Shown: positions 3,005 to 56,097 of the stretch, piece after piece
How positions within the stretch are numbered: the stretch's first letter is position 1
Layout: every line of letters starts with the position of its first letter
From: Pristiophorus japonicus
Lineage: Eukaryota
Direction: 5' to 3'
Length of the DNA stretch: 64,000 nt
NCBI RefSeq assembly: GCF_044704955.1
Contig: NC_091987.1
Location: 109,368,001-109,432,000 of the forward strand
The notes under the pieces: model-generated
Databases searched by the model: none
The model's input: the letters and a program-made list of their open reading frames with translations, nothing else
What the model was told of the DNA's origin: nothing
Translations under genes and position numbers: made by a program

Positions 3005-3955
3005 AGGGATCTGTGTTGGGACCTCAACTATTCATTGTATTTATTAACTACTTAAATGATGGGATAGAGAGCCACAAATCCAAGTTTGCCGATGACACCA
3101 AGATAGGTGGCATTGTAAGCAGAGTAGATGGAAGCACAAAATTACAAAAAGAGATATTAATAGATTAAGTCAATGGGCAATACTGTGGCAAATGGATTAC
3201 AATATATGCAAGTGTGAGGTCCACTTTGGCCCTAAAAAGGATACATTAGAGTACTTTCTAAATGATGAAAAGCTAGAAACAGTGGAGGGCCAAAGAGACT
3301 TAAAGGTCCATGTATATAGATCATTAAAATGTCATGGACAGGTCCAAAAATAATCAAAAAATCTAATGGAATGTTGGCCTTTATACTAGAGGACTAGAAT
3401 ACAAGGGGTTACAAGTCATTCTACAATTATACAAAGCCCTGGTTAGAGCACACCTGGAGTACTGTGTTCAGTTCTGGCCACGACACCTTACGAGGGATAC
3501 ATTGGCCTTGGAGAGAGTGCAGCATAGATTTACTAGAATTATACCGAGGAGATATTCCTGGAATTTAGAAGATTAAGGAGTGATTTGATCAAATTTTTCA
3601 AGATATTAAGGGGAACTGATAGGGTAGAGAGAGAGAGAGAGAGAGAAACTATTTCTGCTGGTTGGGGAATCGAGGACTAGGACATGACCTAAAAATTAGA
3701 GCCAGGCCTTTCAGGAGTGAAGTTAGGAAACACTTCTCCATGCAAAGGGTGATAGAAGTTTGGAACTCTCTTCCACAAATGGCAGTTGATGCTGGGCCAA
3801 TTGTTAATTTTAAATCTGAGAGTGATAGATTCCTGTTAACCAAAGGTATTAAAGCATATGGGGAAAAGGTGGATATATGGAGTTAGATCACAGATCAGCC
3901 ATATTGAATGGCTGAACAAGCTCAAGGGGCTAAATGGCCTACTCATGTTCCTGTC
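3005..3955 (+). mobile_element. Older 5'-truncated CR1 LINE
   Basis: KFADDTK motif, C-terminal RGHDLKIRARPFR...VWNSLP, stops and frameshifts, internal (GA)n. Confidence 0.85.
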
Positions 3956-3956
3956 A

Positions 3957-5385
3957 GGGAGGGAGAGAGAAAACAGGGAATTATAGACTGGTCAGCCTGA
4001 CCTCAGTAGTGGGTAAAATGATGGAATCAATTATTAAGAATGTCATAGCAGTGCATCTGGAAAATGGTGACATGATAGGTCCAAGTCAGCATGGATTTGT
4101 GAAAGGGAAATCATGCTTGACAAATCTTCTGGAATTTTTTGAGGATGTTTCCAGTAAAGTGGACAAAGGAGAACCAGTTGATGTGGTATATTTGGACTTT
4201 CAGAAGGCTTTCGACAAGGTCCCACACAAGAGATTAATGTGCAAAGTTAAAGCACATGGGATTGGGGGTAGTGTGCTGACGTGGATTGAGAACTGGTTGT
4301 CAGACAGGAAGCAAAGAGTAGGAGTAAACGGGTACTTTTCAGAATGGCAGGCAGTGACTAGTGGGGTGCCGCAAGGCTCTGTGCTGGGGCCCCAGCTGTT
4401 TACATTGTACATTAATGATTTAGACGAGGGGATTAAATACAGTATCTCCAAATTTGCGGATGACACTAAGTTGGGTGGCAGTGTGAGCTGCGAGGAGGAT
4501 GCTATGAGGCTGCAGAGTGACTTGGATAGGTTAGGTGAGTGGGCAAATGCATGGCAGATGAAGTATAATGTGGATAAATGTGAGGTTATCCACTTTGGTG
4601 GTAAAAACAGAGAGACAGACTATTATCTGAATGGTGACAGATTAGGAAAAGGGAAGGTGCAACGAGACCTGGGTGTCATGGTACATCAGTCATTGAAGGT
4701 TAGCATGCAGGTACAGCAGGCGGTTAAGAAAGCAAATGGCACGTTGGCCTTCATAGCGAGGGGATTTGAATACAGGGGCAGGGAGGTGTTGCTACAGTTG
4801 TACAGGGCCTTGGTGAGGCCACACCTGGAGTATTGTGTACAGTTTTGGTCTCCTAACTTGAGGAAGGACATTCTTGCTATTGAGGGAGTGCAGCGAAGGT
4901 TCACCAGACTGATTCCCGGGATGGCGGGACTGACCTATCAAGAAAGACTGGATCAACTGGGCTTGTATTCACTGGAGTTCAGAAGAATGAGAGGGGACCT
5001 CATAGAAACGTTTAAAATTCTGACGGGTTTAGACAGGTTAGATGCAGGAAGAATGTTCCCAATGTTGGGGAAGTCCAGAACCAGGGGTCACAGTCTGAGG
5101 ATAAGGGGTAAGCCATTTAGGACCGAGATGAGGAGAAACTTCTTCACCCAGAGAGTGGTGAACCTGTGGAATTCTCTACCACAGAAAGTAGTTGAGGCCA
5201 ATTCACTAAATATATTCAAAAGGGAGTTCGATGAAGTCCTTACTACTCGGGGGATCAAGGGTTATGGCGAAAAAGCAGGAAGGGGGTACTGAAGTTTCAT
5301 GTTCAGCCATGAACTCATTGAATGGCGGTGCAGGCTAGAAGGGCTGAATGGCCTGCTCCTGCACCTATTTTCTATGTTTCTATCT
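3957..5385 (+). mobile_element. Young 5'-truncated CR1 LINE with uninterrupted RT region
   Basis: ORF 3934-5292 has YLDFQKAFDKV, GVPQGSVLGP and KFADD; CR1 3' UTR with ctatgttt tail. Confidence 0.95.
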
Positions 5386-19130: not shown

Positions 19131-20559
19131 AGATATTATCCTACGTGTCAACGATAGCTTCCCAATGGGCAGCCTTGACTCTTTTATTCTGCAGATTTCT
19201 GGCATGATAAAACTATTTGACAGCTTGGGTTGATGGTTTTTGGGAGACAACAACTTGTATTTGTTGTGTTTAGAAGAACTTCACGAGGCTGAGTACTGTG
19301 AGCTAAACTTAGTGTGACCTTAGTCTTTATTACAACTCCAGAGTGCCTAAACAACATGGCAGCCAATCGTTTATGCTGGTCCTGCACGTGTGTGCAGGTG
19401 ACCATTAGGACTCCAACAGTCACGCCCTCTGGTGGCAAGTAATACATAGTTACATACATAACATCACTCCCCCCCCAAAGTCTTCAGTACAAGTTATTTA
19501 CAAGTTGAGACGATCCGGAGCCCTTCGCTCCCTGGTTGATCGACTAAGTTCAAACCCTGGCGTGTGTGAGTTGGCCGGACCATTGCTGCACTGCACCGCG
19601 GATGGTCTGACCGGACTTTCAGGAATGGTGGGTTCATCCTCGTGATTGACAGCGAGGTCGATTGCTGGTTGGGTGTGTGTTGGTGGATCGTCAATGGTGA
19701 TGTCCTCTTCAGGTCGTTCCTGGTTATCAGTAAATCGCAATTTGGTCTGATCTAAATGCTTTCTGCACATTTGGCCATTTAACAGCTTGATTATAAACAA
19801 CCTATTCCCTTCCTTGGTCAAAACAGTGCCAGCAATCCACTTGGGACCATGACCATAATTCAGGAAAAACACAGGGTCGTTAACATCAATGTCACGTGAA
19901 ACACCTGCGCAATTGTGGTACATGTTCTGCCGGTGTCGCCGGGTTTCCACGTGATCATTAAGATCCGGGTGGACTAGGGAGAGCCTGGTTTTGAGGGCTC
20001 TCTTCATTAACAATTCCGCCGGGGAACCCCGATGAGCGAGTGGGGTCGTGTCCGGTAACTGAGCAGAATGCGAGACAAGCGAGTCTGCAGGGAGCCCTCC
20101 GTCAGGCGTTTCATGTTCTGCTTGATTGTTTGGACTGCCCGCTACACTTGACCGTTAGATGTGGGCTTAAACGGAGCAGACCTGACCTGCTTGATGCCAT
20201 TGCGGGTCATAAACTCGTTGAATTCCGAGCTGGTGAAACATAGTCCATTGTCGCTGACAAGGATGTCGGGCAAGCCATGGGTGGCGAACATGGCCCGGAG
20301 GCTTTCAATGGTGGCTGTGAATGTGCTGGATGACATGATTATGCATTCAATCCATTTGGAGTAAGCATCCACAACTACTAAAAACATCTTTCCTAGTAAG
20401 GGGCCGGCAAAATCTATGTGGATCCTGGACCACGGTTTGTTGGGCCATGACCACAGACTCAGTGGAGCCTCCCTTGGTGCATTGCTCAGTTGCGAGTAAG
20501 TGTTGCACTGCTGCACGCATGACTCCAAGTCCGAGTCAACGCCTGGCCACCAAACATGC

Positions 20560-23504
20560 TGTTGTGTATTGCTCCAGTACATTAAATGTATAATAAGTAC
20601 AATGGTGCACCACAGAGGGCGCTATGGTGGGAGACCTGAAAGTATCTGCATGAGCCAGTATAAAAGGCTGCCCACCACACCTGTGGAGCACTCTGGAGCT
20701 GTTCAATAAAGGACTAATGTCACAGCAGTACGATCAACACCAGACCATGTGGGGTCAGTGATTTGTGTGCTACATACATGACAGTGGTGACGAGGAAGCG
20801 GACGAAATCCACGCAACTATGGCTACTCTGGGTTTGCTAAAGGATTTTACCATGGGCAATGATTGGGAGGCCTTTATGGAAAGGCTCGAGTACAACTTCA
20901 CAGCAAACGACCTGACGGGGAGCACGGACGCAATGAGAGAGAAGCGTAAGGCGATATTGCTTTCCAGTTGTGGCGATGAGGTTTATTGTCTCGTCAGGGA
21001 TTTGTCCCGCGAGCGCCAGGGACAAGTCATATGAGGAGCTGGTCGCACTCATTCGTGACCAGTTGAAACCGAAGGAGAGCATCCTCATGGCCAGATACAA
21101 ATTTTACCATCACTGCAGACCCAAGGGCCAGGATGTCACCAAATATGCCGCGGACCTCAGGAGACTCGCGGTGCCGTGTGATTTTGGCGCACACCTTGAC
21201 GAGGCATTGCAGGACGTTTTCGTCATGGGGATCAGCTATGAGGGACTCCTTCATAAGCTGCTAGCCACGGAACCCACAGTCATCCTGACAAAGGCCATCA
21301 CCATCAGCCGGGCATATATGACCTCGACTTGCAGCACCAAGCAAATGATCCACACAGTCTCCAACCCGGCAGGCACTGTCCACAGGATAGCGCCCACCAT
21401 GGACAAAACTGCAGAACGTGGCTCTGCCCGGGGCAGAGAGCACGGACCTCGGGGTCCTGGAACTCAGAGTCCGCTGAGGGGGGCCAATCAAGCAGCACCA
21501 TGCTGGTGCTGCGGAGGAAGCCATGGGACTCACTGGTGCAGGTTTGCGGCGTGTACATGCAATACCTGCCACCTGAAAGGCCACCTTCAGCGTATGTATA
21601 AAAGAAATCGGACTCACCATGTGGCTGAAGAGACGGGGGATGATCCACTGTTCAGTGAGGAGCAGGCAGAAGAAGATGAGGGGTTGGGACTGTATACGTG
21701 CACTGACGATTCGCCCCCAGTGATAATGGAAGTAAAAATTGACGGAGTCCCAGTGAGTATGGCAGTGGATACGGGATCGGGTCTGTCGTTGATGAGTCAG
21801 AGAACTTTTGAGAAACTGTGGGGTAACCCGGCTGCACGACCCAAGCTGGTCCCAGTCATAGCAAAGCTGCGTACCTACACCAGGAAACTGATACCTGTTC
21901 TCGGCAGAGCGGATGTGCAAGTATCTCACGGGGGCGAGACGCACGGTTTACCCTTATGGGTCATTGTAGGCGATGGGCCAACGCTCCTCGGCAGAAGATG
22001 GATGGGAAAGGTCCGTGGGAGCTGGGAAGACTTCTTCATTCCTCCACAGACTGCTGCTCCCCGGGTTCCCAAAGAGCAGCGCCAACCGAGCTGGAGCTGC
22101 AGCCTAAATCTACACACAGGCGACAGCAGCCCAGAACTCCTGACCCCAAGCAATCGTGCAGCCTCAGCCTCCACAGACGAGCAGACCCTGGAAGAACAGG
22201 TTTGCAGGTCAGCCTCCACAGATGAGCAGACCCTGGAAGAACAAAGTTGCAGGTGCGGGCCTATTGCTGGGGTGCAGGCCGGTGGGGCGCTGCGGGCGAG
22301 AAGCGGGAGGCCCATCGATGGCCGGTGGATCCGGGGGGCCCACGCAGCGGAGCAGTCGGGCGGCGGCAGCGGCCGCGATGGTGGCGGCCACGGCGGCTGC
22401 AGGAGAGACGGTCACGGTGGGAGCGGAGGCTGCAGCGGCGGCCGCGACTCGGAGGGACGTGAGGCAGAGCAGCGGATGCAGCAGCAAGCACGGAGCGACT
22501 CACTGCGACTGATCGAGTCCAGGGAGCCACTGCTGCAAGAGGGATCGATCTGGGCCGTTTTGCTTTTATACTATTTGCAGGTCCAATCAACTCCCTCCAG
22601 TATGCTATAGCTCGATCTCTGGCAATAACCATGGCAATAGTTGGTCCAGAACTCATGAATGCTGTTACCCGGATCGGAGAACGATCTCTTCGATTTCCTC
22701 CACGTTGTCGATGGCATCGGGTTTGATCAGGGCCAGCGTCCTCTCCACGTACACCTCTGCTGCACACTGTGCTTTCTCCATAACTCACTCACATCCGCTG
22801 GAAATACCGCACCTTTCCTAAAAACACTGTAAAATTCCCTTTCCCTCCTTCCTTGTTTCTTCTTCTTTCTAGGCCAGCAGAACACCTAAGATGGCGGCGC
22901 CCACCGAAGCCTCGTGGGAGCCACAAGATGGCGTCTTAAAAGGGAAATGCTCCCGGGAGTCTTAAAAGGGCCTCACACCACTGCGGTCCCCACATAAAGA
23001 CTTTTGGACTTTCGTAGGGCCAGAGCGAGTCTAAGTGTGCTATGTGAATGTAGGATGATGGATTCATGACAAGAAATAATATTTTAATGCTGGGTGGTCA
23101 CTGTGTTTAAAATAATGGACATGAATTGCGAATTACGACAAGAGTTAATATTTCAATGCTGAATGGTCACTGTGTTTAAATTCAGGGACGTGGATCTGTG
23201 ACCAACATTACCAATGTGCTAATGCGTTTTTTGATTTAGGGGATTCAAGCAATGGCTTTTTGAACTGGGGGAGGAAGTGATGTTGTGTATTGCTCTGGTA
23301 CATTAAATGTATGATAAGTACAATGGTGCACCACAGAGGGTGCTGAAGTGGGAGACCTGAAAGTACCTGCACGAGGCAGTATAAAAGGCTGCCCACCACA
23401 CCTGTGGAGCACTCTGGAGCTGTTAAATAAAGGACTAAGGTCACAGCAGTAAGATCAACACCAGACCATGTAGAGTCAGTGATTTGCGTGCTACATACAC
23501 GACA
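20560..23504 (+). mobile_element. Nested non-autonomous Gypsy LTR element (gag-protease plus cargo)
   Basis: 224-bp LTRs 20560-20783 and 23281-23504; 5-bp TSD CATGC; PBS TGGTGACGAG; PPT ggggggaggaa-like tract before the 3' LTR; gag ATG at 20819 with a frameshift near 21005; zinc knuckles; protease VDTGS; no RT/RH/IN; splits the outer integrase H2C2 motif (HPGIVMMKAIARL|HVWWPG). Confidence 0.95.
22558..22781 (-). pseudogene. NME5: Captured, internally deleted NME5 (NDP kinase homolog 5) fragment
   Basis: 22781-22668 = MEKAQCAAEVYVERTLALIKPDAIDNVEEIEEIVLRSG then TAA; 22665-22558 = TAFMSSGPTIAMVIARDRAIAYWRELIGPANSIKAK; both resemble recalled NME5 (YVEKTLAIIKPD...LRSG; TAYMSSGP..AMILAR..AI.YW.EL.GP.NS..AK). 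Confidence 0.88.
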
Positions 23505-26500
23505 CATGCAACCTGGCAATTGCCTTCATCATGACAATGCCTGGGTGGGTACTGTGTAGATCGCATATAAATGTTTCCCTGCCTTTTTTTGGCAAAACCA
23601 CGTGATTATCCCAGAAGAGACAATCCGATTGGATGGACATTTCATCTTTGCGTCAGTGAAACTGCTTAATTTCATCTTGCATTTCCCCTGGAACGGCCGA
23701 CCAGTTCCCACTTAGGACGCAACTCTTTACTAATAATAGCACAGGATCCTGGCTGGTCCAGGTCCTGATCTGGCGAGCTGTAATGGGTGACCCCTCGCTC
23801 TCAAAAGCATCCATGGATAGCAAGTCTGCGGGCTGCACCATTTCAACCCCAGTGGTGGGTAATGGTAGCCGGCTGAGAGCATCGGCACAGTTTTCAGTGC
23901 CTGGTCTGTGGCGGATAACATAGTCATAAGCGGATAATGTTAGTGCCCATCTTTGGATGCGGGACGAAGCATTGGTATTTATATATTTGCTCTCTGAAAA
24001 CAGCAAAATGAGTGACTTGTGGTCAGTTTCAAGCTCAAACTGAAGTCCAAATAGGTATTGGTGAATTTTCCTAACCCCATATACACATGCTAATGCCTCT
24101 TTCTTGACCATACTATAGGCTCTCTCAGCTTTAGACAGACTTCTAGACACATATGCAACAGGTTGGAGGTTGCCTGATACATTGGCTTGCTGTAACACAC
24201 AGCCAACCCCGTACGATGAAGCGTCACAAGCTAGCAATGTTTACTTGGGTCATAGTGTATCAGTAACTTATTTGAACATAGCAGGTTCCTGGCCTTCTCA
24301 AAGGCTGTGTCTTGAGATTTTCCCCAAACTCAGTCATCACCCTTACGTAGCAACATGTACAAAGGCTCTAACAACATGCTCAACCCAGGTAGAAAGTTAC
24401 TGAAATAGTTGAGGAGTCCCAGGAACGAACGCAGCTCCGTCACATTCTGTGGGCTGGGTGCATTCTTGATGACCTCTGTCTTTGAGTCCGTGGGCCTGAT
24501 GCCGTCTGCTGCAATTTTTCTCCCCCAAAATTCGACTTCTGGCGCCAGGAAAACACACTTGGAGTGTTTCAGCCTGAGTCCCACTCTGTCTAGGCGACTT
24601 AGAACCTCTTCCAGGTTGTGTAGATGTTCGATGGTGTCACGACCAGTGATCAGGATGTCGTGTTGAAACACAACGATGTGCAGAACAGATTTCAGCAAAC
24701 TCTCCATGTTTCTCTGGAAAATGGCTGCAGCCAAGCGAATCCTGAAAGGGCACCTGTGGTATATAAACAACTCTTTGTGTGTGTTGACGCACATCAGTCT
24801 TTACAAAGATTCAGCCAGCTCCTGTGTCATGTAGGCGGAGGTTAGGTCCAACTTGGTGAAAGACATCCCTCCCCCCGCTAACGTTGCGAACAGGTCATCC
24901 GCCTTAGGCAGCAGGTACTGGTTCTGTAGTGAGACTCGGTTAATCGTTACCTTGTAGTCTCCGCAGATTCTGACCATGCCATCGCTTTTCAACACCGGAA
25001 CAATTGGACTGGCCCACTCGTTGAACTCGACTGGCGATATGATTCCTTCATGTTGGAGTCTGTCCAGTTCGATCTCAACTGTCCGAGCCTTGTGATGGAC
25101 AGGCCGTGCATTGGGGCCTAGATGGATCTGTACCTTGCTGCCTGTGAAGTTGCCGATGCCTGGTTCGAATAGCGAGGGAAACTTGCTCAGCACTTGAGCA
25201 CACGAGGCATCATCCACTGAAGGTAGTGCTTTGATGTCGTTCCAATTCTGTCTAATCTTTTCTAGCCAGCTTCTGCCGAACAGTGTTGGGCCATTGCCTG
25301 GAACAATCCACAAAGATTGCACAGCTCCATCATAAGATACCTTCACTGCCACACTTCCAATGACTGGTATGAGCTCTTTGGTGTAGGTACACAGCTTTGC
25401 ATTAATCAGGCTCAGTTTGGGCCTTTGTGTTTTATTGCTCCACAGTTTCTCGAAAGCCTTCTGGCTCATTATTGATTGACTCGCACCCGTGTCCAACTCC
25501 ATGGATACTGGATCTCCAGACTTCTTCCTCGGGTTGAGTTGCTGTGCTGCATGATCTGCGCCAGATCGATCATCCTCTGCCATGTGGTATGTCACAGCAC
25601 GTTTGCACATTCGCTGGCGGTGCCCCATTGTTGCACAGCCTTTGCACACATAGTGCTTGAATCGACATTGATGGGCCCGATGTTTACCCCTGCAGCACCA
25701 ACACGGTGCACGGTGCTTATGGATTCACATTCACCCCCGATGGCGGACTCTGAGTCATCACAGGTCTTGCAGCCGCAGATGTATAGGCCCTGCCATATGC
25801 AGTTTGGCATGCTAGCGATGTCATTTTATGCACAGTACTTGCCGGTGAGCTTCGATGTTGAGAAGATATCTGTTTTGTGTTATCATCCGTGGCCATGAAT
25901 GCCTGGGCGAACGCGATGGCCCTACTCAGGTCTAGGGTTTTGGCAGCCAGCAGCTTTTGAAGAATGACCTTGTGGCTGATGCCCAGCACGAAAAAGTCCC
26001 GCAGCATTTGCCCCAATGCAGCTCCAAACGCAAGGTCCCGCGAGGCGTCTCAGGTCGGCGACATAATCCACCACGTCCTGGCCGCCGGAGCGATGGTGCG
26101 TGTAAAAATGCTATCTGGCCATCAGGAAACTCTCCTTCGCCTTGAGGTGGTCCCGAACTAGCATGCACAACTCTGTACATTCCTCTTCTTTGATTTTGTC
26201 TGTGCGAGCAGATTCTTGATGAGGCCGTATATTTTAGGCCCACAGATGGTGTGGAGAACTGCCCTGCGTTTGGCCGCGTTTGTGCCTCCTTCCAGCTCAT
26301 TGGCCATGAAGTACTGGTCGAGACGCTCGACGAAGGCTTCCCAATCATCACCCTCTATGAATCTCTCTAATATTCCAATGGCAGCCATGGTTGTGTGAAG
26401 GTTCGTATTCTGTTACTCATCGCCAATTGTTGTGTATAGAAGAACTCCACGAGGCTGAATACTGTGAGCTAAACTTAGTGTGACCTTAGTCTTCTTTATT

Positions 26501-26879
26501 ACAACTCCAGAGTGCCTAAACAACATGGCAGCCAACCTTTTATACTGGCCCTGCACATGTGTGCAGGTGACCATTAGGACTCCAACAGTCACGCCCTCTG
26601 GTGGCAAGTAATACATAGTTACATACATAACAGTATTTATATACTGTTTTTATTGTAGTAAAACATCCCAAGGTGCTTCACAGGAGCAGTATCAAACAAA
26701 AACACTGAGCCACATAAGAGGCCTGTGGAGGAGCAGTGAACGACAGACCTCAGCCTCAGGATTATCGCGTTAGGCTGCCCATGAGCTAAATCCTGAAGTT
26801 TCGGTCAGTTTCAAAGGTAAAATGACGGCGAACGTTGCTAATTTATTGTCATCAGGACCACAGGTTCTGGGCCAACAAA

Positions 26880-45461: not shown

Positions 45462-46088
45462 TGCACTCCCCTGCCCTTTCCCCATAGCCCTGCAATGTTT
45501 TTCCTCCAGGTAACTTATCCAATTCCCTTTTGAAAGCTATGATTGAATCTGCCTCCACCACTCTTTCAGGCAGTGCATTCCAGATCATAACCACTTGCTG
45601 CGTAAAAGGTTTTTCCTCACGTCGCATGTAGTTCTGTCAATCACCTTAAATCTGTGTCCTCTGGTTCTCGACGCTCCCGCCAATAGGAACAGTTTCTATT
45701 TTCTCTGTCTAGACCTATGATTTTCAATACCACTATCAATTACCTCTCAAATTTCTCTGCTCTAAGAACAACCCCAGCTTCTCCAGTCTATCCACATAAC
45801 TGAAGTCCCTCATCCCTGGAATGATTCTTGTAAATCTTTTCTGCACCTGCAGGGTGTTTGTTTTTCACTCTGATTCTTAGACCTCGGAACTTATAGTGGG
45901 AAAGGACAACACGTGGCACAAAATTTAGGCTTAATCCAGTGTCAGTTTTATTATGCAAAAAATGACTAAAACTACAGGACTAAACTTCTGAGAGGAATCA
46001 ACTGAAAACATACAATCACCCTTGCTGGCTGTAGCTATTGTAGGTTTGTGGTCATTGGTTCCTTGACCGGTTAGTTCTTCTTCTAGCC
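45462..46088 (-). repeat. Left arm of ~627-bp inverted duplication (partner 48688-49313)
   Basis: Near-identical reverse complement, including the same LTR/CR1 junction. Confidence 0.9.
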
Positions 46089-48259: not shown

Positions 48260-48928
48260 TGTTACGTGAGGCCCTGAACTTAATTGACTAGAGTGGGGAA
48301 AAACAAACCCACTGGAGACACCAAGTCTGTAAAAAGACTGGACAACAAAGGAACCACACCAGGTGCACATTTTTTGGGAATGAAGTGTTAAGATGGGAAA
48401 TCAACTTGAGCATTGGAGATTCAGTGTGCAAATGGGAAAACAGACGGGTCCATTATTGCAGTCAATCAACCAAGGGGACCACAAAACAATGTATCGATGC
48501 AAACACTTTATCAGAAACTGCAGTGGCGGGAGATCAGTCAAAACCTGGATATAAATATGCGAGCTAGAAGCAGCTTAGCAGAAGTAGGATGTGTACAGAT
48601 GGACACAGGTCAAAAGAACGAACAGACGATCGGACGGAAGGACATGTAGTATGGAACGTACACGAAAGGAACAGCACTGCAGAGAATGGCTAGAAGAAGA
48701 ACTAACCGGTCACGGAACCAATGGCCATGAACCTACAATAGCTACAGCCAGCAAGGGTGATTGTATGTTTTCAGTTGATTCCTCTCAGAAGTTTAGTCCT
48801 GTAGTTTTAGTCGTTTTTTGCACAATAAAACTGACACTAGGTTAAGCCTAAATTTTGTGCCACGTGTTGTCCTTTCCCACTATAAGTTCCGAGGTCTAAG
48901 AATCAGAGTGAAAAACAAACACCCTGCA
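48260..48928 (+). mobile_element. Solo-LTR-like element
   Basis: TGTTAC...CTGCA termini; TATAAATA at ~48549; AATAAA at ~48824; partial relatives at 45850-46088, 50362-50645 and 50867-51030. Confidence 0.6.
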
Positions 48929-49313
48929 GGTGCAGAAAAGATTTACAAGAATCATTCCAAGGATGAGGGATATCAGTTATGTGGATAGACTGGAGAAGCT
49001 GGGGTTGGTCTTAGAGCAGAGAAGTTTGAGAGATAATTGATAGTGGTATTGAAAATCATAGGTTTAGACAGAGAAAATAGAAACTGTTCCCATTGGCGGG
49101 AGCGTCGAGAACCAGAGGACACAGATTTAAGGTGATTGACAGAACTACATGCAACGTGAGGAAAAACCTTTTATGCAGCAAGTGGTTATGATCTGGAATG
49201 CACTGCCTGAAAGAGTGGTGGAGGCAGATTCAATCATAGCTTTCAAAAGGGAATTGGATAAGTACCTGGAGGAAAAACATTGCAAGGCTATGGGGAAAGG
49301 GCAGGGGAGTGCA

Positions 49314-52420: not shown

Positions 52421-54264
52421 CACCTATTGTACTACCCAGGCCGGATTCATGTCCCAAGAACTTTAAAAAAAAAAATCCTATTTGTCCCGTGTTGTTTTTT
52501 TTCCCCTTCTCTCATCTCATAGAATGTTTTCCCCAGTCTAAAAACAGTAATGCCCGATAAGTACAGCCTCAATAGGGATTCACCCGTAACGCGGATATCC
52601 ACAGAAACAGTCAAAAGTCAGAGCCGAGGAGTTGACATTCTTAAAATATGTTTGCTGGCAAAATAGCCTTTTATCTGCTGGGAGTTTTACTAACTTGAAA
52701 AGCTGGTCCAGCACAAAACGGATCCCATGTAAAGTTAGGTCTGGTTCACGGATAATGGATCCAAAATCAGGAAGTTATTCTTACCTCGCTCTCAGTTCAG
52801 CTACTGCCGAACCTTCTTCACTACCCGAAAAATAGAAGCCACAATTTCACTGCGCTATTTTAAAGTAATATGTCATTTTACGACATCCACTTCACTTTTT
52901 AAAGTTTCTACATGTAGCCATTACACGTTGAGTAAACAAAGTTAAACTGTGAAAATAAAATAAAAACGTTTACATTTCCCCTTGTTAAACTGGCTACATT
53001 TTAAGTTTGATTCTAAAATGTTATTACAAACGTGCTGGAGACTGGGAGGAGTAGAAATGATTTTATTTAGTATTCTATCCTAAACTTTTCAGTTTCGTGG
53101 GGAAAGTCTGTGTATTAAACACCATACTCGTGGCGATACTCGCAATTATCGGCGAAGATTCCTCTCTGCGCTAAGCACAGTGATATCCTAAACCAGTTCT
53201 TCATAACTGGGGTTTCCGATTTCACTGTACAATGCGCTGAGGAAACCTTTCTCCGATAATGGGAGATTCTTGATTTGGTCTTATATATTTGCGTAATAAT
53301 CCTTCAGAAATCAATTTAAAAAATAGCAACTTTTCTCACAGAAATTATCTGGATTACTCAAGGACATTATGTGTTGTGGTAGAGGGCTTGTTTATTCAGT
53401 TAGGATGATACAAATTAGCACCCTCTCATTGGCTCCATGTTTGTGCCAACGAGAAAGTTCCACATCCACGGGTAGAGTTACATGGAAGGACATAGAATGC
53501 AGAGCACAGAAACAAGTTATTGGGTCCAACAAGCCCATGCTGGTGTTTATGCTCCACACGAGCCTCCTCCATCAACAGATCCTTCTCGGTCTCCCTGACA
53601 GCCTCAGCAGCGAGCAAAACAGAGGGCAGGTCAGAGCAAAACATCCCGACCGCAGACTTCACAAACTACACACTAGCTTGTTGTGTTTGTTGTTTCTATT
53701 CTGGTCACGGCGACCTCCATTAATATATATCGAGGGGTCACCGGCATGTCAAGCCGATTGTGAGCCACGACTGGCCAAGTTTTGCTGTAGGTGAGTCCAG
53801 GAAAGTGGCGATGTCACGCTGTGGGAATGATCTGATGCTCCCAGCGGGACACTGCAAAGGACAGCAGTAATTCCGTCTTGCCCAGAGGCCCCGACCTTTG
53901 GATTCAATATCAAACAGCACGATTTCACAAACTAGTTGCAACTCTGCAGACCGAGACTTACACTTTTAATGTATTGGGACACGCAGCCAGTCACACTCTC
54001 CCAGGATGGTCTTTTTGGATAGTTATGATGAGGGGTTTTGGACAGTTCATCCACCTATGATGAGGGGAAACAATCTTGCCGGCTCATCTCGCATCTGTTT
54101 CATTTAAAGGGAATGCGACCTTTAGCTTAAAAAAGGTGAGACACGATTTGCTCCACCTTTTTGGGGTTTAAAAAAAATAAAACGTGTGCTGTGGGCGGCC
54201 GTTTCTAACTTGCAGCCAGACTTGTTGGTGTGCGAGCAGTGTGGTGCCGACGCGAGGGCGCAGC

Positions 54265-56097
54265 ATGAGCTACTTTGTGGCGCTGTCCCGCAGCCACGGG
54301 GAGACGGTGCTGTCGCAGTACCAGGCGCTCCGCAGTGACAGGCTGCTGTGCGATGTGGTGCTGGTGGCCGAGGGCACCGAGTTCAACGCCCACCGCTCGC
54401 TCCTGGCCTGCGCCAGCGACTACTTCAAGTCCATGTTCAAGGGGCACACCCGCGAGTCGCGGCAGAGCGTGGTGCACCTGCACGCCGTGTCGGCCGGCGG
54501 CCTGCGCCACGTCCTGGACTTCATCTACAACGCGTGCCTGTGGCTGTCGCCCGAGAGCCTGCCGCAGACGCTGGAGACGGCCAGCTACCTGCAGGTGCTG
54601 GAGGCCGTGCGCCTGTGCTCCCGCTACCTGCTCGGCAGCCTGAGCCCGGCCAGTTGCTGCCAGGCGGCCAACATCGCCGCCCGCTTCGCGCTGGCCGACG
54701 CGCGGGCCGGGGCCGAGGCCTACATCGCCGCCAATCTGTGGCGGCTGCTGGAGCTGGGCGCCGAGGAGGCGGGCCTACTGGAGCTCAACCCCGAGTCGCT
54801 GGGCGCCGTGCTGGAGTCGGAGCAGGTGCCGCGCCTGAGGGAGGCGGCGCTGCTGTCGCTGGCCCTGGCCTGGCTGGGCCGGGAGCCGGGGCGGCGGCAG
54901 CGGCTGCCTCACGCCGGCCCGCTGCTGTCGCGCATCCGCTACGGCCTGCTGTCCGGGGCCGAGCTGGAGGCGCTGTGCTCGGGGGCGGGGGCAGGAGGAG
55001 AGCCGCTGCTGCAGGCGGCCGGGCCGCGGGAGCTGATCGCCCAGGCCTTGGACTACCACTCGGTCGAGAGCCGCCAGCCGCTGGCGCAGAGCAGCCAGAG
55101 CCGCCTGCGGGTGCTGGACGGGCAGCTGGTGGCGGTGGGCGGCGGCCGGCTGCACCAGGCCAGCCTGGGCCTCGTGTGGGCGCTGGAGCCGCGCACCAAG
55201 CGCTGGCGGCCCGTCACCCGCTGCGAGCCGCTCCTCCACCACTGCGTGTGCGTGCTGGCCAACTTCTTGTTCGTGCTGGGCGGCGAGGCCGAGGAGGCCG
55301 GGCCCAAGCAGCCGCCGCCGCACCAGCGCCGGCCGCCGGCCGCTGTCAGCGACCGGGTGCACCGCTACGACCCGCGGCTCGACCGCTGGAGCCGGCTGGC
55401 CAGCATGCGGAGCGGCCGGGCGCAGTTCTCGTGCTGCGTGCTGGGCGGCCGCATCTACGCGCTGGGCGGTCGCTGCGGGCCCGAGGTCCAGGGCCCAGCC
55501 GGCGCCTCGCTGCCCACCGTCGAGGCCTACGACTTCGCGGCCGGCCGCTGGGAGGCCGTCGCTGCCCGTCTGCCGCACCCGCTGCACGGCCACGCCAGCG
55601 CCGTCCACGGCCGCACCATCTACGTCTCGGGCGGCAGGTACGCCGAGCAGGCGGAGGCCAGCAAGGACATGCACTCGCTGCAGCCGCTGGACGGGGAGGG
55701 CCGCTGGGCCGCCTGCCCGCCCATGGCCATCGCCCGCTTCGGCCATCAGATGGCCACGGTGGGCGAGCGCGTCTTCGCCTTCGTCGGTATGTACGAGCCC
55801 TTTTGCGACATCGAGTACTACGACCCGGCGCTGCGCCACTGGCAGCGGCTGCGGCCCCTGCTCCTGGACCGCTCGTGCTACGGCCTGGCGGTGATGGACG
55901 CCCGCGTCTACCTGGTGGGCGGCAAGAAGTGGCACAACGCGCAGGAGGTGGCCGCGCAGAGCGCCGTCGTCTACGACACCGCCAGCGACACCTGGAGAGA
56001 AGTCTGTAAGCTGCCCCTGCCCCTGTGCGGCACCCAGTGCGGGGTGCTGCAGCTCCTGGACCTGCCCGAGGCCGAGGGCAAGCTCGGTATGGAGTAG
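54265..56097 (+). CDS. KLHL34: Kelch-like protein 34 (BTB-BACK-Kelch), 610 aa, uninterrupted CDS
   Basis: MSYFVALSRSHGETVLSQYQALRSDRLLCDV...AHRSLLACASDYF matches the recalled KLHL34 N-terminus; Kelch repeats with GG motifs; downstream of SMPX on the same strand, as in human. Confidence 0.93.
   Translation: MSYFVALSRSHGETVLSQYQALRSDRLLCDVVLVAEGTEFNAHRSLLACASDYFKSMFKGHTRESRQSVVHLHAVSAGGLRHVLDFIYNACLWLSPESLPQTLETASYLQVLEAVRLCSRYLLGSLSPASCCQAANIAARFALADARAGAEAYIAANLWRLLELGAEEAGLLELNPESLGAVLESEQVPRLREAALLSLALAWLGREPGRRQRLPHAGPLLSRIRYGLLSGAELEALCSGAGAGGEPLLQAAGPRELIAQALDYHSVESRQPLAQSSQSRLRVLDGQLVAVGGGRLHQASLGLVWALEPRTKRWRPVTRCEPLLHHCVCVLANFLFVLGGEAEEAGPKQPPPHQRRPPAAVSDRVHRYDPRLDRWSRLASMRSGRAQFSCCVLGGRIYALGGRCGPEVQGPAGASLPTVEAYDFAAGRWEAVAARLPHPLHGHASAVHGRTIYVSGGRYAEQAEASKDMHSLQPLDGEGRWAACPPMAIARFGHQMATVGERVFAFVGMYEPFCDIEYYDPALRHWQRLRPLLLDRSCYGLAVMDARVYLVGGKKWHNAQEVAAQSAVVYDTASDTWREVCKLPLPLCGTQCGVLQLLDLPEAEGKLGME

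Follow-up and report, generated by a model that had tools for sequence, protein, structure and literature searches.

An antisense fragment of NME5 within a decayed Gag-protease-only Ty3/Gypsy element of the sawshark Pristiophorus japonicus

We analysed a 64,000-nt stretch of the Pristiophorus japonicus genome (NCBI RefSeq assembly GCF_044704955.1, contig NC_091987.1, positions 109,368,001 to 109,432,000 of the forward strand; hereafter the window, in whose positions all coordinates are given). In it, a 2945-nt long terminal repeat (LTR) element at 20560-23504, the inner element, sits inside a second LTR element, the outer element, and carries a reversed piece of the host sperm-tail gene NME5 (Table 1). 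The inner element is a decayed, non-autonomous Ty3/Gypsy derivative with Gag and protease only. It has the paired LTRs, TG...CA ends, 5-bp target-site duplication (TSD), primer-binding site (PBS) and polypurine tract (PPT) by which Ty3/Gypsy elements are recognised, and its gag-protease part aligns to relatives with the order protease (PR), reverse transcriptase (RT), RNase H (RH) and integrase (IN), namely the outer element and full-length proteins. The LTRs, TSD, PBS, PPT, gag and protease were all confirmed where a preliminary description of this DNA had placed them. The two LTRs differ at 17 of 224 nt (Kimura two-parameter distance 0.081), with 12 transitions and with 6 of the 17 mismatches being changes of CpG type, and both retain the TATA-like and AATAAA sites. 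The inner copy has private changes at residues of the gag zinc knuckle, and its protease matches Pfam PF13650 with E=1.4e-4, which is under the curated cut-off, while the protease of a related P. japonicus protein, P0009, clears it. We take the primer of the PBS to be tRNA-Ser and the lineage to be presumably Mag-like, the inner element having no RT by which to place it.

Also in agreement with the preliminary description, RT, RNase H and integrase are absent and the element is non-autonomous: of 158 relatives retrieved, 20 were full-length gag-pol proteins (1250-1450 aa), and none of these matched 22061-23280 at E<0.01; no Pfam domain of the three enzymes was found in the inner element. Searches for structured RNA gave no Rfam match and no tRNA, with folding z-scores of 0.07 and +2.29, and the LTR pattern had no match in prokaryotic genomes, as expected.

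Table 1. Features of the inner element, 5' to 3' on the plus strand, and the enclosing outer element
Feature	Position	Strand	Remarks
5' TSD	20555..20559		CATGC
5' LTR	20560..20783	+	224 nt; TATA-like site 20659, AATAAA 20705
PBS-like sequence	20785..20796	+	3' of 5' LTR
gag with zinc knuckle	20819..21728	+	frameshift near 21004
Aspartic protease	21729..22030	+	same frame as gag; Pfam and alignment to relatives
Post-protease tail	22031..22292	+	family-derived, internal duplications; at RT-linker position of autonomous relatives
GC-rich, CpG-rich segment	22293..22557	+	open in gag-protease frame
NME5 codons 70 (part)-106	22667..22558	-	host-derived, AT-rich third positions; complete codons 71-106 at 22665-22558
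NME5 codons 1-38 from ATG	22781-22668	-	host-derived, CpG-rich
91 nt upstream of NME5 ATG	22782..22872		possible NME5 5' untranslated region (UTR)
3' region	22873..23266	+	presumed element 3' UTR; diverged duplication, 69-nt spacing
PPT	23267..23277	+	upstream of 3' LTR
3' LTR	23281..23504	+	224 nt; 92.4% identity to 5' LTR
3' TSD	23505..23509		CATGC
Outer Ty3/Gypsy element	19262..26632	-	gag-PR-RT-RH-IN; TSD GTATT

The NME5 piece lies on the strand opposite to gag, PBS and PPT and is thus antisense to the element that carries it. It consists of two parts, of which codons 1-38 are identical to P. japonicus NME5 (P0001) at 37 of 38 residues and codons 71-106 at 34 of 36 (71/74 together), bearing out the earlier proposal of an antisense NME5 sequence that runs from its ATG for 38 codons and then for 36 more. 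The deletion between them, put at about 32 codons before, is present; its exact size is 94 nt (31 codons and one base), which shifts the frame. NME5 was the top PDB match of both parts (E 1.3e-11 and E 3.4e-8), with NME7 weaker, and all seven matches of a protein search with the piece were full-length shark NME5, so the expectation that NME5 would be the best match held. A source in NME7 or another nucleoside diphosphate kinase gene was ruled out on these searches. That the window contains NME5 itself at its native site, whole or in part, was likewise ruled out, as tblastn of the seven shark NME5 proteins found only the two adjacent parts in the window, and codons 107-210 are absent from it. 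The 71 of 74 shared residues suggest that this sawshark or a near relative was the source, without proving the species.

Several indirect observations argue for an mRNA as the template. GC content at third codon positions differs between the two parts (27/38 in codons 1-38 vs 10/36 in codons 71-106, P=0.0004), as does the observed/expected CpG ratio (1.04 vs 0.22), as expected of two separate exons; moreover, no intron sequence is left at the gap, and all three breakpoints that could be located lie within coding sequence. Considering this exon-like contrast, the missing intron and the coding breakpoints, the piece probably derives from a spliced mRNA. In mammals an NME5 exon junction presumably lies near codon 43, which would fall in the 94-nt gap. 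The exon structure of Nme5 is described as conserved among chordates (PMC2777172, PMC2978717).

A genomic template would be needed if, instead, a member of the family had lain antisense inside the NME5 gene and a read-through transcript with genomic NME5 had been packaged, the intron being lost later by a large deletion. This would account for the orientation directly, and the 91 nt upstream of the ATG, which hold acceptor-like AG sites on the NME5 strand, could then be intronic. The same 91 nt end, on the plus strand, in a strong acceptor-like polypyrimidine-AG site at 22872 (24 of 25 pyrimidines, within 22830-22872), one of only two of this strength in the whole window on both strands, which would suit a read-through transcript too, and which could also be a splice acceptor that belongs to the element, or else reflect an NME5 5' UTR rich in purines. 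We nevertheless consider a read-through origin distinctly unlikely, because a mostly intronic template would hardly leave a gap free of intron sequence and three coding breakpoints out of three, and because the gap, tried as a splice event, has no GT/GC-AG solution on either strand under any choice of synonymous codons.

The relatives of the inner element bear on when pol was lost. P0008 (77% identity) and P0009 (86%), both P. japonicus proteins, share the junction that follows the protease in the inner element. When the 23 top relatives were read by eye, these two had the inner junction, 11 continued into the RT linker (one of them in a shifted frame) and 10 were uninformative, ending too early or lacking the motif. 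In the alignment, the inner element together with P0008 and P0009 contrasts at this point with the outer element. A 20-row tree of the two elements and 18 relatives (from the zinc knuckle to the end of the protease; rooted at the midpoint only) places the inner element, P0008 and P0009 on one branch with 99/98 support. Since the pol-less junction is common to these relatives, which are known as proteins only, pol loss looks like an inherited trait of the family, older than the capture of NME5. The preliminary description had NME5 take the place of pol; the data do not support this, as the junction is shared by relatives 77-86% identical and the divergence of the NME5 piece is too small for a split of that depth.

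The age of the piece can be gauged from its three changes in 74 residues. Neutral simulation predicted 6.3 changes at d=0.04, the LTR-based value (P(<=3)=0.115), 9.2 at d=0.06 (P=0.013) and 12.2 at d=0.08 (P=0.001), suggesting that the piece is young and came later than pol loss. The private gag-protease changes of the inner copy (18/244) are consistent with decay at d about 0.04. Together with the shared junction, this sequence comparison supports an arrival of NME5 at about the time of the inner insertion or later, and not at pol loss.

As to how the piece arrived, we see about an even chance that it was captured inside a particle during reverse transcription, around the time when this pol-less copy was made. 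In such a scheme a shark Ty3/Gypsy lineage would first have lost pol and kept gag and protease, as its two relatives suggest for the family. With Gag and protease alone, an element depends on an autonomous helper for RT and integrase. A 5'-anchored part of an NME5 mRNA, probably spliced, would then have come to lie between protease and PPT, where sequence is dispensable, and the product would have integrated with a clean 5-bp TSD into the integrase of another element, to decay neutrally thereafter. We prefer this route because the piece is 5'-anchored and 3'-truncated, has neither poly(A) nor TSD, lies where sequence is dispensable and is about as old as the insertion; the loss of codons 107-210 with the 5' end kept agrees with the bias towards 3' truncation that LTR-mediated retrocopies are described as having (PMC5131818).

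The orientation calls for a modification of the usual scheme. In the model of Tan et al. 2016, as outlined in PMC5131818, RT switches from the element RNA to an mRNA packaged with it and then back, which would by implication give sense cargo. The NME5 piece is antisense, so that ordinary template switching, offered as the explanation before, does not account for it and the usual minus-strand jump onto mRNA would not be the route; a switch during plus-strand synthesis, or onto cDNA or antisense RNA, may have been used. The 'Orientation' entries in Table S8 of PMC5131818 apparently give the genomic strand and are silent on how often cargo is antisense.

Besides this mismatch with the published model, four further points weigh against particle capture into an already pol-less element from a spliced NME5 mRNA. 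P0008 and P0009 are known from proteins alone, with the DNA 3' of their junction unseen; the age test presumes a source in P. japonicus or a very close relative; the presumed exon junction lies in the deleted part, at a position that is itself our assumption; and the rate of change in NME5 (3/74) is somewhat below that in gag-protease (18/244; Fisher P=0.43), which fits a later insertion as well.

Such a later insertion, the main rival reading, could have happened in this copy alone, after integration, by cDNA inserted at a double-strand break or by a long interspersed nuclear element (LINE) retrocopy trimmed afterwards, in which case the piece never moved with the element. We regard this as possible, if doubtful. 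Either orientation would be natural for it. Products of RT inserted during break repair, as described by Ono et al. 2015 (PMC4516963), resemble the NME5 piece in being partial and intron-less, at times reversed, and free of poly(A) and TSD, although those inserts, unlike the NME5 piece, came from induced breaks in mouse zygotes. Retrocopies are reported to be many in cartilaginous fishes, with 14,081 in one survey (10.64898/2026.06.26.734816; PMC13320880 gives general background on retrocopies), and LINE-type RT fragments abound in the window. The gag-protease frame is also open up to and into the NME5 piece, like an interrupted tail, and NME5 has fewer changes than the LTR-based expectation (3 vs 6.3), but this shortfall is not significant (P=0.115). 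Moreover, an insertion after integration must by chance have hit, within 2.9 kb of element, the 1.2 kb that are dispensable. Copies made by LINEs are 3'-anchored, whereas here the 3' half is missing; of the marks of a LINE-made pseudogene (target-primed reverse transcription), codons 107-210, the A-run and the flanking repeat are all lacking, which a later deletion could explain. The preliminary description had named a TSD or poly(A) of the cargo's own, in a cargo confined to this copy, as the sign of a later LINE-driven insertion, and neither TSD nor poly(A) was found: there is no A-run of at least six near the piece, and the longest direct repeat flanking it (9 nt, 22522/22916) is within chance, being reached in 18 of 300 shuffles. 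That test is not a full one, because neither mark is left when break repair inserts cDNA into a single copy.

The outer element bears several stops and frame changes in its gag-PR-RT-RH-IN and has LTRs (26428-26632 and 19262-19463) that differ by eight mismatches and a 3-nt indel. The inner element is inserted in the integrase zinc-binding region of the outer one, and the insertion is clean, since its flanks translate as consecutive parts of that region. The nested inner LTRs are more diverged (7.6%, 17/224) than the enclosing outer LTRs (4.0%, 8/202), a difference that is not significant (P=0.15). The likeness in LTR, PBS and gag claimed for the two elements stands loosely: LTR termini and PBS are alike, while LTR identity reaches 76-78% over only 72-84 nt and the segment from zinc knuckle to protease has 51% amino acid identity. 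In the tree the outer element falls on a different branch from the inner one, each branch with 99/98 support, and thus, as far as these sequences tell, it is a sister lineage and not the parent family. The idea that its family is the close parent falls on this separation and on the 51% identity, and the outer copy is itself broken. The outer lineage is still a possible helper for the inner element, with LTR ends and PBS alike, as trans-mobilisation is described as possible without LTR homology (PMC10886601).

In its strongest form the earlier interpretation held that NME5 took the place of pol and gave rise to a cargo family that became amplified, mobilised by the family of the outer element and transcribed antisense to NME5. 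The inner structure is compatible with this, LTR elements with cargo are documented to undergo secondary amplification (PMC5131818), the LTR termini and PBS of the two elements are similar, and LTR homology is not needed for trans-mobilisation (PMC10886601). We would nevertheless be surprised to find it true, given that the pol-less junction is shared by relatives more diverged than the NME5 piece and that the outer element stands on a branch of its own. In addition, 2734 candidate proteins of 306-975 aa included none with the cargo frame, and the search with NME5 yielded nothing beyond the seven full-length NME5 proteins, both being weak tests of DNA copy number. No second cargo-bearing copy came to light in these protein searches, and the inner copy is probably the only one or one of a few.

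A further P. japonicus gene model, P0013 (hyaluronan-binding protein 2-like), begins with 75 residues that are 85% identical to window 21558-21779 (zinc knuckle and protease), and this family-like start is fused to EGF and trypsin domains. It may be a family member that lies beside a host gene or has been joined to it by splicing, or it may have arisen through an error of annotation.

The inner element can be compared with several known systems. It resembles an LTR-associated partial retrocopy, a familiar sort of event, and departs from that pattern chiefly in its orientation. LTR-mediated retrocopies, described in PMC5131818 from fly, mosquito, zebrafish, chicken and mouse as well as human (FAM8A1 in HERV-K), likewise have a partial host coding sequence between LTRs in place of internal open reading frames (ORFs), 3'-truncated, without poly(A) or a TSD of its own, in a non-autonomous element. 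Unlike them, the inner cargo is antisense, is frameshifted by a deletion and apparently entered an already pol-less element. Whether it replaced or interrupted sequence there bears on the comparison as well; family sequence is traced to about 22125-22292 only, upstream of the NME5 piece. Maize Bs1, as presented in the same paper (PMC5131818), is also a low-copy LTR element with host exon fragments, but it holds three genes in one to five copies with shared switch points, whereas here there is one proven gene, antisense and non-coding, in a single known copy. The TR-GAG elements of plants (PMC4350172) share with the inner element a size below 4 kb, LTRs, PBS, PPT, a 5-bp TSD and gag without RT, RH and IN, and with regard to the at least two copies expected of them, two related proteins, known from protein only, have the same junction. 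Judged by its coding content, the inner element is not a TR-GAG, because the TR-GAG selection excludes similarity to aspartic proteases and the inner element keeps its protease; it is also from a vertebrate and carries a host fragment.

How much of the region between protease and PPT is cargo can be narrowed down. Only 224 nt are demonstrably host-derived, or at most about 315 nt with the 91 nt upstream of the ATG, and the '~1.2 kb of unrelated sequence' once assigned to this region is not borne out. Positions 22031-22125 are common to P0008 and P0009, whose shared sequence runs to about 22125, and 22036-22104 aligns to 22209-22280 (P=0.004), so that 22036-22280 appears to be the family's own tail in diverged duplications; a 45-nt tandem duplication lies in frame at 22164-22254. 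A match of P0008 at 22254-22292 is weak (P=0.003 for a 13-residue trim picked post hoc, P=0.05 for the 15-residue version).

The GC-rich segment that follows (GC 0.73 and observed/expected CpG 0.96 over 22255-22550) more probably belongs to the element's tail than to another piece of host cargo. Beyond the protease, 190 codons follow without a stop in the gag-protease frame (22038-22607; P=0.005 by block shuffling), which hints at a C-terminal extension of the element, possibly a Gag-PR-X protein. Codon usage in this frame gives a weak signal (z=3.3, the best of six frames, the others at most 2.1, with a model built from one ORF). No second host gene was matched in the segment by Pfam (three frames plus the gag-protease frame), PDB (two frames) or protein search, and an Atlas search gave best scores of 0.81 and 0.75, which are leads only. 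The 3' region, 22873-23266, matches nothing elsewhere in the window. Just 3' of the acceptor-like site, a AAGATGGCG motif, which we take to be a YY1 site, occurs twice at 22885-22935 on the plus strand.

With regard to function, no NME5 protein is possible from the inner copy as read here, because the piece is antisense, frameshifted and truncated; the inner gag is broken as well. An antisense NME5 transcript is possible, as both LTRs keep their TATA-like and AATAAA sites. NME5 is described as testis-predominant in zebrafish, human and mouse (PMC2777172), and small interfering RNAs (siRNAs) from retrocopies are known in mouse (PMC5470649); by analogy, regulation of NME5 by small RNAs is a possibility only. 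A fuller scenario, in which a pol-less Gag-protease Gypsy family of sawsharks acquired the 5' end of an NME5 mRNA backwards through a template switch on the plus strand, multiplied and now feeds germline PIWI-interacting RNAs or endogenous siRNAs that tune NME5, we rate as very improbable indeed. If true, a host fertility gene would have an antisense regulator that is mobile and carried by an LTR element, and the event would be a natural example of cargo taken up by such an element in antisense.

LTR elements of many animals are already known to capture host genes, and a decayed case from a shark adds a lineage, not a principle. Should the cargo prove to have travelled with the element, the locus would offer a natural example of a non-canonical template switch, which is of possible value because the standard model does not predict antisense cargo. 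The relatives moreover suggest that sawsharks have a non-autonomous Gypsy lineage with Gag and protease only. Our searches of an open-access library brought up no paper on such a sawshark or shark element; repeat databases may still contain one. The locus would gain more weight only if the cargo were multi-copy and the source of germline small RNAs against NME5.

Elsewhere in the window, a GC-rich, uninterrupted BTB-BACK-Kelch frame of 638 codons at 54181-56094 (plus strand) is probably a single-exon host KLHL gene, presumably KLHL34-like. An open LINE-type RT frame of 452 codons at 3934-5292 (plus strand; RVT_1, E=5.7e-33), which we take to be of CR1 type, has many shorter relatives across the window. 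A 576-nt inverted repeat (45513-46088 and 48688-49263), 97% complementary and with its arms 2.6 kb apart, encloses a LINE-type RT fragment.

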